From an archaeon (GTDB lineage: Archaea > Iainarchaeota > Iainarchaeia > Iainarchaeales > CSSED10-239), in NCBI GenBank assembly GCA_035387745.1, contig DAOOON010000004.1, forward strand, positions 37,997 to 43,907: a stretch of DNA of 5,911 bases. Reading direction: 5' to 3'. This document shows, piece after piece, positions 883-5,890 of this stretch. Both the position numbers and the translations under genes were made by a program. The notes under the pieces were generated by a model. The model was not told the DNA's origin. It was given only the letters and a program-made list of their open reading frames with translations, and ran no database searches. Each line of letters starts with the position of its first letter. Within the stretch, counting starts at the first letter, position 1.

Positions 883-1320
883 ATGAAAACTTACGTTAAA
901 AAAGGAAAAGTATCTATAGATGAAACCACACCAGAAGAGATACTTAATCCGGCTACTTTTACGAACACTATTAAAAAAACCGCTCTTCTTAAAAAAATAA
1001 ATTACGATTTAGAAAAGAGAGAAACTAAACCTATAGACATAAAAAAGACAATTGTTCCTGAAAAAAAAGAAACAATAGACATTAAAGAAAATATAACTAG
1101 AGAAATAAAAAAGATAATTATAGATAATACAGAAAAACAGATTATTAAAAAAACTTATCCAAATACAGAACTTAAACACATACCTCTAGATAAATCCTAT
1201 TCTGAAAAGAAAGAAATAGAAGACTATAATCTAAAAAATGAAAAAATTAATAAAAAATTAAACACTGGTCTTTCTGATAGATTAAAACCAAAATTAAAGA
1301 AAATACATAGAAACCCAGAA
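883..1320 (+). other. 146-aa Lys/Glu/Ile/Thr-rich low-complexity N-terminal extension preceding the GH130 domain
   Basis: MKTYVKKGKVSIDETTPEE...KPKLKKIHRNPE has no hydrophobic stretch and no motif I recognise. By eye it contains degenerate 13-16-residue repeats at about nt 1021-1194: ETKPIDIKKTIVPEKK / ETIDIKENITREIKK / IIIDNTEKQIIKK / TYPNTELKHIPLDK. No in-frame ATG, GTG or TTG lies close to the domain start at 1321, so the extension appears to be translated. Confidence 0.6.
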
Positions 1321-2322
1321 CTTACTTTTTATAAGTCTATTGACAATCCAATAATTTGTCCAAAACCAGAAAATGGCTGGGAGTCTTGGCAAACTTTTAA
1401 TCCTGCAGCGATCTTGATTGATGATAAGGTTCATTTTTTGTACAGAGCTATTGGAGACGACGGCATGTCCAGATTTGGTTATGCAATGTCTGAGGACGGT
1501 TTTGTAATTAGAGAAAGACTTTCTTATCCAGCTTATGTTCATGAAATTGTTAAAGGGCCTTATGTTTTTTTATCCTCGCCATCTGGCGGAAGCTGGGGTG
1601 GCTGTGAGGACCCACGGCTTGTTAGAGTTGAAAATGAGGATAGAATCTATGTTACTTATACTGCTTGTGATGGGGGCTTAAGAGTTGGCTTAACCTCAAT
1701 AAAAGTTTCTGATTTTATAAACAAAAGATGGAACTGGAAAAAACCAAAGATAATTTCTCCACCAGGCGAGTGTAATAAAAACTGGTTAATCTTTCCTGAA
1801 AAGATAAACGGTAAATATGCAATCTTACATAGCATTAATTCAGGGAAAATACTAATTGATTACCTTGATAATCTTGATTTTAAAGACGGAAAATTCATAA
1901 AAAGCAAATATCTTCTAACAGAAGTCAGAGCTGACCGCTGGGATAAAAAAGTTAGAGCTGCTGGCCCTCCACCAATAAGAACCAAGTATGGCTGGTTATT
2001 GTTCTATCATGCTGAAGATAAAGACGATCCTGGAAAATACAAACTTGGAGCAATGTTACTAGATATTAATAATCCAACAAAGATATTATATCGCTGTAAA
2101 CAACCAGTACTTGAACCAAAGGAATATTATGAATGTGAAGGATATAAAGGTGGAATTGTTTATGCACTTGGCTCTGTGATTAAAGACGGAAAGCTAATTA
2201 TTTATTATGGCAGTGCAGACAATTTTGTTTGTGTTGCCTATACTGAATTTGAGCCATTCCTTGAAGCCCTAATCAGAGGAGAGAAAAAGCCTCTTAAGCT
2301 TAAGATTCTTAAAAAGAAATAA
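883..2322 (+). CDS. GH130-family glycoside phosphorylase-like protein (beta-mannoside phosphorylase/glycosidase-related, DUF377) with a Lys-rich N-terminal extension
   Basis: The ORF is 479 aa. Residues 147-479 carry the GH130 hallmark string: NPIICPKPENGWESWQTFNPAAILIDDKVHFLYRA, FGYAMSEDG, GCEDPR (nt 1600-1617), IYVTYTA, FPEKINGKY, PPIRTKYGWLLFYHA, LGAMLLDINNPTKIL, IIYYGSADN. There is no hydrophobic N-terminal segment, so the protein is predicted cytoplasmic. Stop TAA at 2320-2322. Confidence 0.85.
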   Translation: MKTYVKKGKVSIDETTPEEILNPATFTNTIKKTALLKKINYDLEKRETKPIDIKKTIVPEKKETIDIKENITREIKKIIIDNTEKQIIKKTYPNTELKHIPLDKSYSEKKEIEDYNLKNEKINKKLNTGLSDRLKPKLKKIHRNPELTFYKSIDNPIICPKPENGWESWQTFNPAAILIDDKVHFLYRAIGDDGMSRFGYAMSEDGFVIRERLSYPAYVHEIVKGPYVFLSSPSGGSWGGCEDPRLVRVENEDRIYVTYTACDGGLRVGLTSIKVSDFINKRWNWKKPKIISPPGECNKNWLIFPEKINGKYAILHSINSGKILIDYLDNLDFKDGKFIKSKYLLTEVRADRWDKKVRAAGPPPIRTKYGWLLFYHAEDKDDPGKYKLGAMLLDINNPTKILYRCKQPVLEPKEYYECEGYKGGIVYALGSVIKDGKLIIYYGSADNFVCVAYTEFEPFLEALIRGEKKPLKLKILKKK

Positions 2323-2334
2323 ATCTGATTTATT

Positions 2335-3291
2335 ATGATTATTAAAAGATATGATAAAAATCCAATTCTAAAACCAAATAAAAATAGCTGCTGGGAGTCT
2401 CATTCTACTTTCAATGGCTGTGCAATTAAAAAAAAATATGAGACATTTTTATTTTATAGAGCAATGTCATGTAATGATTTCCATCCGGTTAATGAGCAGA
2501 AGATGGAGATGTCTTGTATTGGTGTTTCTAGAAGCTTTGATGGATTAAATTTTAAAAATAGAAAAGTGTTTATTTATCCTGAAGAAAGCTTTGATAAATT
2601 TGGCTGTGAGGATCCAAGAATCACAAAGCTTCAAGACAAGTATTATATTTTCTATACTGCTCTTTCAGAATATCCATTTAGAGCAAGCGGAATAAAAGTT
2701 GCTGTTGCTATAACTAAAGATCTTGAAAAGATTGAAGAACGGCATCTTGTTACGCCATTTAATGCTAAAGCAATGACTATGTTTCCTGAAAAAATAAATA
2801 ACAAGATTTGGTGCATGTTTACATATCACAGTGACTCTCCACCAGCACAGGTTTGCTTTGCAATATTTGATAAAGAAGAAGATATGTGGTCAAGGGATTT
2901 CTGGCAGAAATGGTATAATAATCATAACAAGTTTGTTTTACCACTACAGAGAAGAGAAAAAGACCAGGTAGAGATTGGTGCACCGCCTATTAAGACAAAA
3001 CACGGCTGGCTATTATTCTATTCTTATATCTATGATTATTTTTCTTCAAACAAAGTATTTAGTATTGAAGCAGTTCTTCTGGACCTTAAAGACCCAACAA
3101 AGATTATTGCAAGAACCAAAGGGCCATTACTAACTACAGAAGAATATTATGAAAAATATGGAATGGTTAATGATATTGTTTTTCCATCAGGAGCAACAAT
3201 AAATGGAAATTACATAAATCTTTATTATGGGGCAGCAGACACCACTTGCTGTGTTGCTTTTGTTGATACCAAGTGTTTGTTTGAACAGATG
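2335..3291 (+). other. GH130 module A of the fusion (divergent paralog)
   Basis: Module A reads IKRYDKNPILKPNKNSCWESHSTFNGCAI...FYRAMS...FGCEDPRITKLQDKYYIFYTA...MFPEKINNKIW...APPIKTKHGWLLFYSY...LLDLKDPTKIIART...LYYGAADT. It lacks the (V/I)S(D/K)DFI..W.W.KP.(I/L)ISPPG insert shared by the other two modules. Confidence 0.7.
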
Positions 3292-4239
3292 CTTCCAAAC
3301 ACTCTAAATAATATTTCATTTATTAGATCAGAGAAAAACCCAATAATTAAACCTAACAAAAAGAATAAATGGGAAGCGCGCTCAACTTTTAATCCTGCAG
3401 CAATATATCTTGATGACAAAGTGCATATTGTTTATAGAGCAGTATCAGATAATAATGTCTCAACAATGGGCTATGCAACTTCTAAGGACGGAATAACTAT
3501 TGACTATAGGTCACCAGAACCAATCTATAAGCCAAGAGCAGAATTTGAAAGCTCTGGTTGTGAGGACCCAAGGCTTACGCAGATTGGAGATAACGTCTAT
3601 ATGCTTTATACTGCTTATGATGTTAGAACAGCGCCACGTGTTGCTTTAACAAAGATCTCTGTTAAGGATTTTATTGCTAACAACTGGGACAACTGGTCAA
3701 AGCCAATCTTAATATCTCCACCAGGAATAAGCGATAAAGATGCTTGCTTTTTCCCAGAAAAGATTAATGGCAAATATTATGTTTTACATAGACTTGAAAA
3801 CGAAATAGATCTTTGCGCAATTGATGATCTTGAGTTTAAAGGCAAGAATAAATATCTAGAAGAAAACAACTGGATGGCACCAAGAAAGGGCTGGTGGGAT
3901 TATAGAAAAGTTGGAGCTGCAACTCCGCCTATAAAAACAAAAGAAGGCTGGATATTATTATATCACGGCATTGCTGAAGACCACTCTTATAGTGTTGGAG
4001 CTGCTTTACTTGATCTTAATGATCCTACAAAGATACTTGCAAGAACTGATGAGCCGATCTTTAAGCCAGAAAAAGATTATGAAAAATCCGGGGATGTTCC
4101 AAATGTTGTGTTTCCTTGCGGGGCCATTGTTAAAGACAACAAAATATATATTTACTATGGTGGTGGAGACTCTGTTACTGGTGTTGCAAGCATGGAAATT
4201 GAGTTGCTACTAAAAAAATTAAAACTTTGCAGGTGCTAA
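2335..4239 (+). CDS. Two-module GH130 fusion protein (tandem Glyco_hydro_130/DUF377 domains)
   Basis: The 634-aa ORF starts 12 nt after the upstream stop, with no SD visible. Two complete copies of the GH130 motif series are present, with GCEDPR at nt 2602-2619 and 3556-3573. Each copy runs from KNPI(L/I)KPNK...W(E)..STFN through FPEKIN, PPIKTK.GW.L.Y and LLDL.DPTKI.ART to YYG..D. The copies are joined by a short linker EQMLPNTLNN (about nt 3283-3312). Stop TAA at 4237-4239. Confidence 0.85.
   Translation: MIIKRYDKNPILKPNKNSCWESHSTFNGCAIKKKYETFLFYRAMSCNDFHPVNEQKMEMSCIGVSRSFDGLNFKNRKVFIYPEESFDKFGCEDPRITKLQDKYYIFYTALSEYPFRASGIKVAVAITKDLEKIEERHLVTPFNAKAMTMFPEKINNKIWCMFTYHSDSPPAQVCFAIFDKEEDMWSRDFWQKWYNNHNKFVLPLQRREKDQVEIGAPPIKTKHGWLLFYSYIYDYFSSNKVFSIEAVLLDLKDPTKIIARTKGPLLTTEEYYEKYGMVNDIVFPSGATINGNYINLYYGAADTTCCVAFVDTKCLFEQMLPNTLNNISFIRSEKNPIIKPNKKNKWEARSTFNPAAIYLDDKVHIVYRAVSDNNVSTMGYATSKDGITIDYRSPEPIYKPRAEFESSGCEDPRLTQIGDNVYMLYTAYDVRTAPRVALTKISVKDFIANNWDNWSKPILISPPGISDKDACFFPEKINGKYYVLHRLENEIDLCAIDDLEFKGKNKYLEENNWMAPRKGWWDYRKVGAATPPIKTKEGWILLYHGIAEDHSYSVGAALLDLNDPTKILARTDEPIFKPEKDYEKSGDVPNVVFPCGAIVKDNKIYIYYGGGDSVTGVASMEIELLLKKLKLCRC
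3313..4236 (+). other. GH130 module B of the fusion (closest to the upstream single-module gene; most canonical motif set)
   Basis: Module B reads ISFIRSEKNPIIKPNKKNKWEARSTFNPAAIYLDDKVHIVYRAVS...MGYATSKDG...SGCEDPRLTQIGDNVYMLYTAYD...FFPEKINGKYYVLHR...TPPIKTKEGWILLYHG...LLDLNDPTKILART...VPNVVFPCGAIV...IYYGGGDS. Confidence 0.75.
4231..4235 (+). promoter_or_regulatory. Shine-Dalgarno-like AGGTG, 7 nt upstream of ATG 4243, embedded in the last codons of the GH130 fusion gene
   Basis: The sequence reads gcAGGTGctaatatATG, and AGGTG is complementary to the usual 16S 3' tail. Confidence 0.45.
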
Positions 4240-4242
4240 TAT

Positions 4243-4575
4243 ATGAAAGAAACAAAAAGGCCTTGGGGTAAATTTCTAACCTTTGCAAAAAACCAAAAAT
4301 GCACAGTTAAGATTCTTGAGGTTAATCCTGGAGAATCCCTAAGCCTACAAAAACACAAGCTTAGAGAAGAGCATTGGTATTTTCTAGACCCTGGTATTGT
4401 TCAGATTGGTAATTCTAAGAAAAAGATTGCTGCAGGAAAAGAAGTAATAATTAAGAAAAACAAAGAACACAGGCTTGTTGCAGGAAAGAACAAAACAAGA
4501 GTTTTAGAAATTTCTTTTGGTAATTTTTCAGAAAAAGACGAAGTAAGGTTAGAAGATAAATATGCAAGAAGATAA
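4243..4575 (+). CDS. Stand-alone type-II phosphomannose isomerase cupin domain (MannoseP_isomer-like), putative mannose-6-phosphate isomerase
   Basis: The 110-aa ORF aligns by eye along its full length to the C-terminal PMI domain of bifunctional ManC-type enzymes: KRPWGKF...VKILEVNPGESLSLQKHKLREEHWYFL..G......(I)..G..V.I.....HRL.....K..VLEISFG.F.E.DEVRLEDKYARR. The cupin ligand pattern G-x5-Q-x-H-x4-E (G30, Q36, H38, E43) and the motif-2 His (H76) are present. Stop TAA at 4573-4575. Confidence 0.7.
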   Translation: MKETKRPWGKFLTFAKNQKCTVKILEVNPGESLSLQKHKLREEHWYFLDPGIVQIGNSKKKIAAGKEVIIKKNKEHRLVAGKNKTRVLEISFGNFSEKDEVRLEDKYARR

Positions 4576-5890
4576 GGCATTTAAAACAAATGACATAAGA
4601 GGAATATACCCCAAAGAAATAAACGAAAGCCTTGCTTATTTAATTGGAAAAGCAATAGTCTATAAGTTTAAGCCAAAAGTTGTTGTTATTGGAAGAGACG
4701 CAAGAGCTTCTTCTCCTTTGCTTTTTTCTAGTGTTGTTAAAGGCGTTCTTGAAAGTGGCTGTGATGTTATTGATATTGGTCTAACTAATACTCCTTTGTT
4801 TTATTATTCTGTTGGAGAACTAAAAGCAGATTTTGGAATAATGATTACTGCTTCGCATAACCCTGGACAATATAATGGCTTTAAGCTTGTTAAAAAGGGT
4901 GTTGTTCCAACAACCGCAAAAGAAATACAAGATATAAAAAATATAATTCTTGAAAAAAAAGCAATATCTTCAAAGCCTAAAAAGCTTGGTAAAATAATCA
5001 GAAAAGAGATTTCTGAAAAATATCTTAAAAAGCTATTGTCTTACTCAAAAATTAAAAAGAAACTAAAAGTTGTTGTTGACACTGGTAACGGCATGGCTGC
5101 ACCAATTGTTTCTAAGGCCTTTTCTAATTTGCCAATTTCTGTGATTTATATTAATAAAAAAATGGACATGATTAAACCTAAACACGAGGCAAACCCATTA
5201 AAGATAGAAACCTTAAAGGAATTACAAAAAGAGGTTAAGAAAAACAAAGCAGATATTGGTATTGCCTTTGACGGCGATGGCGACAGGGTTGGCTTTGTTG
5301 ACGATAAGGGTGAAATAATCCCTATGGATTTTATTACTGCTTTACTTGCTAAATATTTCTTAGAGAAAAAACCAAAATCTAAGATAATTTATGACATTAG
5401 AAGCAGCAACATTGTTAAAGAAACGGTTCTTGCAAGTGTCGGAATTCCTGTAGAATACAAGGTTGGCCATTCTCTTATTAAAAAAAAGATGAGAGAGATT
5501 AATGCTGTGTTTGCTGGAGAGATTAGTGGGCACTATTATCTTCCTGAGTTTTATTATTGTGAAGCTCCAATCTTTATTTCCATAATCTTAATGAACTATT
5601 TAGAGAGAGAAAAGCTATCAAAAATGATTTTGCCATTTAGAAAATACTATAAAAGCCCAGAGATCAATTACAAAATAAAGAATCCAGAAAAGAAGATAAA
5701 AGAACTAAGAAATAAATATTCTTCAGGAAAGATAAAAACCCTTGATGGACTAAAGATCGAATATCCTGACTGGTGGTTTAATGTCAGAGGTAGCCACACA
5801 GAACCACTTCTTCGCCTTAACCTTGAAGCCAACACTAAAGAGCTTATGGTAAAGAAGCTAAAAGAAATCGAAGATATAATAAAAAAATAA
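4562..5890 (+). CDS. Phosphomannomutase/phosphoglucomutase (alpha-D-phosphohexomutase superfamily, ManB/AlgC-like)
   Basis: The 442-aa ORF carries all four signature loops. These are the phosphoserine loop TASHNPGQYNGFK (Ser codon 4853-4855), the Mg loop DGDGDR (5270-5287), the sugar loop GEISGH (5516-5533) and the phosphate loop RGSHTEP (5786-5806). The N-terminus has FKTNDIRG. The start overlaps the cupin gene by 14 nt. Stop TAA at 5888-5890. Substrate preference (Man vs Glc vs GlcN) cannot be fixed from motifs; the context favours mannose. Confidence 0.9.
   Translation: MQEDKAFKTNDIRGIYPKEINESLAYLIGKAIVYKFKPKVVVIGRDARASSPLLFSSVVKGVLESGCDVIDIGLTNTPLFYYSVGELKADFGIMITASHNPGQYNGFKLVKKGVVPTTAKEIQDIKNIILEKKAISSKPKKLGKIIRKEISEKYLKKLLSYSKIKKKLKVVVDTGNGMAAPIVSKAFSNLPISVIYINKKMDMIKPKHEANPLKIETLKELQKEVKKNKADIGIAFDGDGDRVGFVDDKGEIIPMDFITALLAKYFLEKKPKSKIIYDIRSSNIVKETVLASVGIPVEYKVGHSLIKKKMREINAVFAGEISGHYYLPEFYYCEAPIFISIILMNYLEREKLSKMILPFRKYYKSPEINYKIKNPEKKIKELRNKYSSGKIKTLDGLKIEYPDWWFNVRGSHTEPLLRLNLEANTKELMVKKLKEIEDIIKK

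Follow-up and report, generated by a model that had tools for sequence, protein, structure and literature searches.

A conserved two-gene GH130 system of DPANN archaea and Patescibacteria, with three non-equivalent modules

Introduction

The closest described relatives of the proteins reported here are Teth514_1788 and Teth514_1789 of Thermoanaerobacter sp. X-514, a 1,2-β-oligomannan phosphorylase and a β-1,2-mannobiose phosphorylase belonging to subfamily GH130_6 of glycoside hydrolase family 130 (GH130). These cytoplasmic enzymes are single-module homodimers with the canonical phosphate-binding Arg and His, encoded by adjacent paralogous genes, and they divide labour by chain length (PMC4264767). 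In this study, I describe a 5,911-nucleotide stretch of DNA (hereafter referred to as the window) from an uncultured DPANN-type archaeon of the Iainarchaeota (GenBank assembly GCA_035387745.1, contig DAOOON010000004.1, positions 37,997–43,907 of the forward strand), in which two adjacent genes encode three GH130 modules, labelled A, B and C. Module A stands in a gene of its own, and B and C are covalently fused; this arrangement (A | B-C) recurs in both archaea and bacteria. The three differ in their active sites: each has a β-1,2-type sugar site, and a canonical phosphate pocket is present only in C.

Other described systems also bear on this locus. BT3780 and BACOVA_03624 (PDB 5a7v and 3qc2) are stand-alone β-1,2-mannosidases of subfamily GH130_3, which act on Candida mannan in the yeast-mannan utilisation loci of Bacteroides, and do so without basic phosphate ligands. 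In BT3780, E227 and E268 are the candidate catalytic bases, and E268Q lowers the activity 200-fold; the authors concluded that replacing the basic phosphate ligands with carboxylates turns phosphorylases into hydrolases (PMC4599007). In Leishmania, the mannosyltransferase/phosphorylases (MTPs) of family GT108 act on the β-1,2-mannan mannogen in the cytoplasm, with a reversible link to mannose 1-phosphate (Man-1-P). They are paralogous five-bladed propellers, encoded as separate single-module proteins in a tandem array, and Arg150 in MTP4 versus His161 in MTP2 correlates with phosphorylase versus transferase activity. It has been shown, for GT108, that active-site residues and the pocket Arg alone do not decide between these two activities (Franceus et al., 2024, PMC10913872).

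GH130 proteins with two modules have been noticed before. In November 2018, CAZy held four GH130-GH130 sequences among 1,592, none of them characterised; its multimodular GH130 proteins fall mainly in meta-nodes C3 and UC4, with both modules of each protein in the same meta-node, and the characterised or predicted GH130 phosphorylases are all single-module (Li et al., 2020, PMC7660257). Within GH130, an Arg/His pair marks phosphorylases and a Glu/Lys pair marks β-1,2 specificity (Li et al., 2020, Table 2), the latter being a criterion in PMC4599007 as well, and every GH130 phosphorylase group keeps the Arg/His pair (Li et al., 2020).

Results

Three GH130 modules in two adjacent genes

The first of the two genes, open reading frame (ORF) 1, spans positions 883–2322 on the + strand, as do all features of the window described below. 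It encodes a 479-residue class-A GH130 protein, consisting of an N-terminal extension (883–1332, residues 1–150) followed by module A (1333–2319, residues 151–479). ORF2 (2335–4239, 634 residues) follows after a spacer of 12 nucleotides with two in-frame stops, and fuses module B (2335–3300, residues 1–322) to module C (3313–4236, residues ∼327–634) through a linker at 3292–3321 (residues ∼320–329). PF04041 (Glyco_hydro_130, cut-off 26 bits) matches ORF1 once, over residues 168–461 (E = 9.3e-38, 130.4 bits), and ORF2 in two stretches (E = 9.5e-109, 363.6 bits). The motif GCEDPR is encoded at 1600–1617, 2602–2619 and 3556–3573, and at no other site in the six reading frames. For each module taken separately, the best PDB sequence matches are Teth514_1788 (9fj8) and Teth514_1789 (7fip), with E-values of 4.1e-43 for A, 4.9e-42 for B and 4.7e-65 for C.

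Both proteins should be cytoplasmic, judging from their hydropathy: the maximum 10-residue Kyte-Doolittle score within the first 35 residues is 0.22 and the maximum 19-residue score is ∼1.0, and by this heuristic alone, neither a hydrophobic N-terminus nor a transmembrane segment was found in either protein. An earlier note, made from the letters of the window without database searches, had proposed three GH130 modules in genes of 479 and 634 residues, had located the three GCEDPR motifs, had named the Thermoanaerobacter β-1,2 pair as a comparison, had described characterised GH130 enzymes as single-module, and had taken the proteins to be intracellular for want of a signal peptide. The ORF coordinates, the exact motif positions, the Pfam and PDB matches, the literature and the hydropathy profile all bear these proposals out.

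The ORF1 extension is Lys-rich (32 Lys in 150 residues) and may be disordered; no Pfam family matches residues 1–150. Extensions of this length (∼140–200 residues) are present in five of 120 listed orthologues, mostly close relatives of the window, the median extension before the module being 44 residues in A-type orthologues.

Only module C has a canonical phosphate pocket

To compare the active sites by class, 123 A, 121 B and 121 C modules were aligned with MAFFT together with Teth514_1788, Teth514_1789 and BT3780, whose sequences were taken from PDB alignments and whose numbering was checked against the published residues. The sugar-binding and acid-catalytic parts of the site are retained throughout. 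The proton-donor Asp (UhgbMP D104, Teth514_1788 D92) and the −1 subsite Asp (D281) are invariant in A, B and C, as is the Arg of the YRA motif in the +1 subsite, and the −1 subsite Asn (Teth514_1788 N28) is found in every A and C module and in 120 of 121 B modules. The two residues diagnostic of β-1,2 linkage, at the positions of UhgbMP Y103 and R150, are likewise conserved: the Glu (Teth514_1788 E91) is invariant in all classes, and the Lys of the NKD motif is found in 122/123 A, 121/121 B and 121/121 C.

The phosphate ligands, on the other hand, separate the classes. At the position of UhgbMP R168, Arg is found in all 121 C modules, Ser in 120 of the 123 A modules (Arg being absent from 122 of them), and Thr (115) or Ser (5) in the 121 B modules. 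At the position of UhgbMP H231, His is again universal in C (121/121), A has His in 109 and Gln in 14 of 123, and B has Ser in 117 of 121. The Tyr of the pocket is also replaced by Phe in 120/121 B. The Arg/His pair that marks phosphorylases is thus complete only in C (R486 and H544); A combines S317 with H376, and B combines T163 with S230. The earlier note had read the complete GH130 motif series in all three modules, which stands for the sugar-binding and proton-donor residues but not for the phosphate-binding set, complete in C only.

In the window, module C has N353, R368, E410/D411 (within the GCEDPR at 3556–3573), K468, R486 (3790–3792), H544 (3964–3966), Y552 and D612, and is a canonical β-1,2-type phosphorylase module. 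Module A has E242/D243 (GCEDPR at 1600–1617), K299, H376 and Y386, with Ser317 (1831–1833) in place of the phosphate-binding Arg. In Uhgb_MS, the R202A substitution, at the equivalent of the Arg missing from A, brings phosphorylase activity down 16-fold, and the authors proposed that enzymes with only three phosphate contacts lean to transferase activity (PMC12814180).

Module B keeps N27, R42, E92/D93 (GCEDPR at 2602–2619), K145 and D302, and has T163 (2821–2823), S230 (3022–3024) and F242 (3058–3060) in the places of the phosphate ligands. It also possesses a class-specific pair of Glu residues, E213 (2971–2973) and E245 (3067–3069). The first of these falls on BT3780 E268, both in the MAFFT column and in a profile-profile alignment with HHalign (probability 99.85); this column has Glu in 120/121 B, and Gly or Ala in A, in C and in the Teth514 enzymes. 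Modules A and C thus have no carboxylate at this position of the phosphate pocket, as in phosphorylases, and B has one. In the segment of BT3780 E227, where the alignment is unreliable, B has no Glu at the adjacent columns, and a conserved Asp a few residues on (TD/SD-x-PP). The exchanges of A (Arg to Ser) and of B (Arg, His and Tyr to Thr, Ser and Phe, with two Glu) are variants that have not been described for any characterised GH130 enzyme.

Of the known determinants of chain-length specificity, the W120 block of Teth514_1789 and the GH130_4-type lid were found in none of the three modules. Class A has an insertion (VFLSSPSGGSW) just before GCEDPR, at 1555–1599 of the window (ORF1 residues ∼225–239), such that the spacing from the YRA Arg to EDPR is 50 residues in A versus 45–46 in B and C. 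This is the region of the active-site lid in GH130_4 enzymes, and the insertion may affect acceptor length.

The B-C fusion is a genuine two-propeller protein

I next consider the structure of the fusion, for which an AlphaFold2 model of ORF2 only was obtained from a 52-sequence alignment. The model has a mean predicted local distance difference test score (pLDDT) of 95.1 and a predicted template modelling score (pTM) of 0.90. For a chain of two domains, this pTM indicates a confident relative placement of the B and C propellers, which are thus predicted to pack in a fixed position. The last helix of B stops near residue 319, and C has its first strand at residues 330–331. The linker between them is short and ordered, with a DSSP assignment and pLDDT of 91–93, and no disordered linker is seen in the model; its columns vary among homologues.

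A Foldseek search of the PDB with this model returned GH130 structures for all of the top 35 matches, the first being Teth514_1788 (target TM-score 0.89–0.91, root-mean-square deviation 1.9–2.0 Å), and the five-bladed β-propeller fold is recognised by superposition on solved GH130 structures. No PDB entry spans more than 43% of the query, indicating that a two-propeller GH130 structure has not yet been solved. Membership of GH43 or GH32 was also considered and rejected, as only weak partial Pfam matches were found (GH32N, E = 3.7e-07, with no stretch passing alone, and DUF1861), the strong structural matches being all to GH130.

The gene is likewise one single ORF in independent assemblies, drawn from ENA, Logan, JGI and NCBI. 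Together with the full-length conservation described below and the ordered linker, this rules out an assembly or frameshift artefact. The earlier note had asked for both of these checks, on the family and on the reading frame, and its claim of a covalent two-module fusion through a linker of about ten residues is upheld by them.

The NCBIfam model NF052550, an equivalog for β-1,2-mannobiose phosphorylase (cut-off 450 bits), gives 179 bits for ORF1. For ORF2, both modules must be added together to give 462 bits, and no module passes singly. Because of this summed score, automatic pipelines may give that enzyme name to the whole of ORF2, and JGI already names several ORF2 homologues β-1,2-mannobiose phosphorylase.

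The fusion is widespread in Patescibacteria and DPANN archaea

Among the 120 top relatives of ORF2, typed with class models, 118 are B-C proteins and two are A-B-C proteins. Nearly all are 628–661 residues long, and they cover at least 98% of ORF2 at 56–97% identity; the two A-B-C chains have 996 and 1110 residues, at 47 and 49%. They come from Aenigmarchaeota and, within the Patescibacteria, from Colwell-, Levy-, Jorgensen-, Harrison- and Zambryskibacteria. A full-length match to ORF2 was found for no fewer than 2,921 clusters (90% identity; rescored E ≤ 1e-200, 8,000 candidates scored), a lower bound obtained with a cut-off that is out of reach of a single module unless nearly identical.

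A scan of species-representative genomes added Wolfe-, Staskawicz-, Campbell-, Peregrini- and Saccharibacteria, Microgenomates, Minisyncoccia and Paceibacterota. It used patterns from a single sequence and yielded 21 fusion loci, and is therefore no measure of prevalence per genome; the closest matches, at 89% and 87%, are in metagenome-assembled genomes labelled as archaeal. The B-C fusion is thus widespread in Patescibacteria (the candidate phyla radiation, CPR) and in DPANN-type archaea.

This abundance overturns the rarity of tandem fusions implied in the earlier note, a few of which were already in CAZy in 2018. In literature searches that paired GH130 with Patescibacteria, DPANN or CPR, no characterisation of the tandem proteins of these organisms was found. 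A passing mention of two signal-peptide-free GH130 enzymes was found for a Microgenomates genome (PMC7143001). The tandem GH130 architecture therefore appears to be common and uncharacterised.

Other architectures were observed as well. Stand-alone B-type proteins of ∼320–334 residues occur (P0252 and P0257), and the same set of odd architectures includes a permuted C-B protein of 645 residues (P0244), and a B-C protein of 1029 residues, ∼400 of which form an unannotated extension at the C-terminus (P0241). The low frequency of forms such as stand-alone B and C-B suggests that the fusion is the dominant arrangement, but not an obligatory one.

A and B-C form one genetic unit

An A-type gene lies immediately upstream of the B-C gene, on the same strand, in 18 of 18 genome loci, and the two genes often abut or overlap. 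The class-A orthologues of ORF1 (∼120 listed, at 59–94% identity, typically 350–390 residues) come from CPR and DPANN genomes, and include the neighbour of the B-C gene in Aenigmarchaeota ex4484_52. In a few cases all three modules form one natural A-B-C chain, of 1110 (P0009), 996 (P0043) or 971 residues (P0242).

In some CPR lineages (Microgenomates and Minisyncoccia), the A-type gene encodes 607–610 residues (L019 4044–5867, L020 948–2777 and L021 4165–5985). These long proteins possess an additional N-terminal region of ∼250 residues with a weak GH130 match, and in L019 two PF04041 stretches are found. There are 17 such "X-A" proteins among the 150 best representatives, and loci combining X-A with B-C would be four-module systems.

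In a neighbour-joining tree with few reference sequences and BT3780 as the outgroup, A, B and C each form a clade of their own. A is sister to C, the Teth514 pair attaches to these two, and B has a deeper branching point. The mean identities are 46% between A and C, 33% between A and B, 38% between B and C, 46% between C and the Teth514 enzymes, and 30% between B and BT3780. Relative to the GH130_6 pair, C is 46%, A 40% and B 38% identical, making the modules neighbours of GH130_6 in separate clades.

The archaeal versions of both genes (from the window, Aenigmarchaeota and Nanoarchaeota) are 56–65% identical to those of Patescibacteria, and the gene order is kept. Such a shared gene pair points to transfer between these two radiations of ultra-small cells, or to a very strong shared constraint.

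Neighbouring genes

The window holds six ORFs on the same strand. The most upstream is the 3′ end of hxlA (40–261), followed by HxlB, a 6-phospho-3-hexuloisomerase (254–820; TIGR03127, 187 bits against a cut-off of 160), and then by ORF1 and ORF2. Downstream of these are a cupin of the mannose-6-phosphate isomerase (PMI) C-terminal type (4243–4575, 110 residues; PF01050, E = 3.6e-17), and an α-D-phosphohexomutase of the PMM/PGM/GlmM type, where PMM stands for phosphomannomutase, with all four PGM/PMM domains (4562–5890). The spacer between ORF2 and the cupin is 3 nucleotides, and the cupin and mutase genes overlap by 14. The tight spacing from ORF1 to the mutase fits a single transcription unit for these four genes, and the link to PMM and PMI drawn in the earlier note is seen in this direct adjacency.

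A 97%-identical relative (L001) extends the view upstream, the gene order being phosphoribosyl pyrophosphate (PRPP) synthase, RpiB, HxlA, HxlB, A, B-C, cupin (PMI) and mutase (PMM), with the upstream genes at 5966–8484 of L001 on the same strand. The mannoside genes thus sit inside a cluster leading from hexose phosphates to pentoses and PRPP. Four kilobases upstream of the cluster, on the − strand (L001 2294–4609), is a gene for a 771-residue protein with a NosD-type right-handed β-helix, three CHB_HEX_C_1 and three Fn3_assoc repeats, which may be a surface or adhesion protein.

In CPR bacteria, the pair usually lies among housekeeping genes, and no transporter, binding protein or secreted glycosidase adjoins it in the CPR loci examined. 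Cupins like that of the window are found near the B-C gene in L008, L014, L018, L021 and L033. In the last of these, a 521-kb CPR contig, B-C is followed (9931–11075) by a HAD phosphatase of the Hydrolase_3 type and then by a 122-residue PMI-type cupin; in certain lineages, the pathway may include a phosphatase acting on sugar phosphates.

Discussion

Comparison with described systems

The A | B-C system resembles the Teth514 pair in its adjacent paralogous genes and cytoplasmic proteins, in the Glu/Lys β-1,2 pair, the proton donor and the −1 subsite of all modules, and in the full set of phosphate ligands of C. It differs from these single-module homodimers, with their canonical Arg/His, in that its three modules are differentiated, B and C are fused, and A and B are without the Arg. 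The surroundings differ as well: the Teth514 cluster includes genes for an ABC transporter, for a guanylyltransferase and for enzymes of GH5 and GT4, whereas here PMI, PMM and ribulose-monophosphate pathway genes are found, and most CPR loci have no sugar genes whatsoever.

Like BT3780 and BACOVA_03624, module B is without basic phosphate ligands, and it shares with BT3780 the Glu at E268, the more important of the candidate bases, the β-1,2 Lys and the proton-donor Asp. Unlike BT3780, to which it is only ∼30% identical, it branches with the GH130_6-like modules and has a second, different class-specific Glu (E245). Because of this branching, the E268-type Glu would be an independent acquisition. 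B is also cytoplasmic and fused to a phosphorylase module, in contrast to the stand-alone Bacteroides enzymes.

The Leishmania MTPs are likewise paralogous five-bladed propellers, and both they and the modules described here differ among themselves at the phosphate-pocket Arg. The MTPs however belong to another CAZy family, whereas the modules of the window match PF04041, and they are not fusions; in addition, the Arg is replaced here by Ser or Thr, not His. The likeness is one of functional analogy, based on the published description (PMC10913872). Compared with the GH130-GH130 entries of CAZy (PMC7660257), which share the presence of two modules per polypeptide, B and C fall into two plainly distinct classes (38% identity), and metagenomes hold many members of the family.

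Proposed function

With moderate confidence, I favour the view that A | B-C is a conserved cytoplasmic system for β-1,2-mannosides, in which C is a phosphorylase, B is hydrolase-like and A is a variant without the Arg, with Man-1-P passed to the adjacent mutase and isomerase. Since every phosphate ligand is kept, C would be a reversible β-1,2-mannoside phosphorylase, catalysing (Man)n + Pi ↔ (Man)n−1 + α-Man-1-P. Module B, which is placed before C in the chain and predicted to pack against it, would use water instead of phosphate and act, hydrolase-like, on a linkage or chain end outside the range of C. Module A may be a weak or altered phosphorylase, possibly biased to synthesis or to another donor. 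It would work in a complex with B-C, as suggested by the constant adjacency of the genes and by their occasional union in one A-B-C chain.

In this archaeon, Man-1-P would be converted to fructose 6-phosphate by the probably co-transcribed phosphomannomutase and cupin isomerase, and could then reach pentose phosphates through the upstream HxlB/HxlA, RpiB and PRPP synthase. A reverse ribulose-monophosphate route to pentose phosphates is known in archaea, and the gene order from PRPP synthase to mutase suggests such a continuation. Phosphorolysis can also run backwards, so that a β-1,2-mannan reserve could be made from fructose 6-phosphate with the same genes; an ATP-free storage cycle between the two would need nothing beyond PMI, PMM and the GH130 modules, in analogy to the turnover of mannogen in Leishmania (PMC10913872). 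I lean to an endogenous oligomer or polymer as the substrate, rather than a scavenged glycan, because of the contrast with the Thermoanaerobacter salvage cluster, which holds an ABC transporter and a GH5 enzyme (PMC4264767), unlike the CPR loci with neither transporter nor secreted glycosidase.

Several points weigh against this proposal. The activities assigned to A, B and C rest on residue patterns of enzymes that are only 30–46% identical to them, and the GT108 result of Franceus et al. (2024) makes such a residue-based assignment weak for A. For B, there is no clear equivalent of BT3780 E227, and the module does not group with the GH130_3 hydrolases (30% identity, with BT3780 outside the clade of B, Teth514, A and C); a fusion of a hydrolase with a phosphorylase is also without obvious energetic logic. 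The metabolic link is uneven, since PMM adjoins the pair only in the archaeal loci, and the cupin is adjacent in only some of those from CPR. No mannose-1-phosphate guanylyltransferase, hexokinase or primer-forming enzyme was found in the loci inspected. Finally, no β-1,2-mannan from CPR or DPANN organisms was reported in the literature searched for prokaryotic mannogen and β-1,2-mannan storage.

Alternative explanations

The relay put forward in the earlier note has all three modules as ordinary phosphorylases of differing chain-length preference, working from polymer to disaccharide to Man-1-P, with the fusion channelling intermediates. It would account for the position of the Teth514 pair, itself divided by chain length (PMC4264767), as the closest relatives of every module, for the proton donor and sugar-binding residues kept in all of them, and for PMM and PMI downstream. 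It does not sit well with the phosphate pockets, as A is without the Arg in 122/123 modules (Ser in 120), and B is without Arg, His and Tyr in at least 117/121 and has Glu at the hydrolase base position, whereas the R/H pair is kept in every phosphorylase group (Li et al., 2020). In addition, no module has the Teth514_1789 W120 block or GH130_4 lid that would mark a disaccharide specialist, and I consider this relay improbable. The loss of all the phosphate ligands from B could also mean that it is a non-catalytic partner, a pseudo-enzyme or carbohydrate-binding propeller, that replaces the second subunit of the usual GH130 homodimer and positions the chain for C. Teth514_1788 and Uhgb_MS are indeed dimers, loop L2 of both Uhgb_MS subunits shaping the site (PMC12814180), and the B-C packing is predicted to be rigid (pTM 0.90). 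However, the proton-donor Asp, its adjacent Glu and the −1 subsite Asn (120/121) and Asp are invariant or nearly so across the 121 B modules, and the replacements (Thr, Ser, Phe and two Glu) are themselves 95–99% conserved. This pattern suggests a remodelled active site rather than a decayed one, and stand-alone B proteins of ∼320–334 residues exist; a non-catalytic role for B is therefore unlikely.

A different question is where the substrate comes from. Pure salvage of β-mannosides from the host or environment (O-antigen, fungal or archaeal glycans), with no endogenous polymer, would agree with the mostly episymbiotic lifestyle and reduced biosynthesis of CPR and DPANN organisms. The archaeal operon also reads naturally as catabolic, toward fructose 6-phosphate and pentoses, and the Thermoanaerobacter cluster has been read as one of salvage (PMC4264767). 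That cluster, however, has the transport and secreted functions that do not flank the pair in the loci examined. Moreover, although β-1,2-mannosides are seldom encountered in nature, the system persists in a very large number of minimal genomes, whose presumed hosts are diverse. Salvage is possible, although I find it somewhat doubtful. As for the 634-residue ORF being an artefact that joins two genes, or the modules belonging to another propeller family (GH43/GH32), the partial GH32N and DUF1861 matches are all that speaks for it, against the same ORF in independent assemblies, at least 2,921 full-length clusters, a pLDDT of 95 and 35 top structural matches to GH130, and its probability is negligible.

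Within the favoured view of a β-1,2-mannoside system with non-equivalent modules, a more specific and speculative proposal is that CPR and DPANN organisms make and consume an intracellular β-1,2-mannan, a prokaryotic counterpart of mannogen, through an A:B-C complex, in line with the mannogen-like storage cycle that the earlier note had raised as its second model. Here A would prime or extend the chain, C would equilibrate it with Man-1-P according to the phosphate level, and B would trim or release it. I regard this as rather doubtful at present. If true, a mannan reserve together with PMI and PMM would constitute an ATP-free carbon buffer for glycolysis, and for pentose and nucleotide synthesis, in a minimal metabolism, and would explain both the retention of the pair in many reduced genomes and its sharing across two domains.

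Significance

GH130 is a well-studied family, and the literature searched presents its characterised phosphorylases as single-module enzymes sharing one invariant phosphate pocket. The proteins described here define a large uncharacterised branch of GH130, in which three differentiated modules are always found together, two of them covalently fused. Of greater interest is that the phosphate pocket of A and that of B are each remodelled in a way specific to the class, to which the strict A | B-C linkage across two domains adds. Automatic annotation labels these proteins "hypothetical protein", "glycosidase" or "β-1,2-mannobiose phosphorylase", the last of which is unsupported for two of the three modules.

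If the residue-based assignments hold, B-C would be a natural fusion of a hydrolase-like module with a phosphorylase, and B a second, independent conversion of a GH130 phosphorylase pocket to carboxylates. Such a conversion would be useful for understanding, and for engineering, the switch between phosphorylase, hydrolase and transferase. The A | B-C set belongs to a small number of carbohydrate-active systems that have been kept in many lineages of Patescibacteria and of DPANN archaea, organisms whose carbon and nucleotide economy is poorly understood, and with it, β-mannan storage in ultra-small prokaryotes becomes directly testable with a handful of recombinant proteins.

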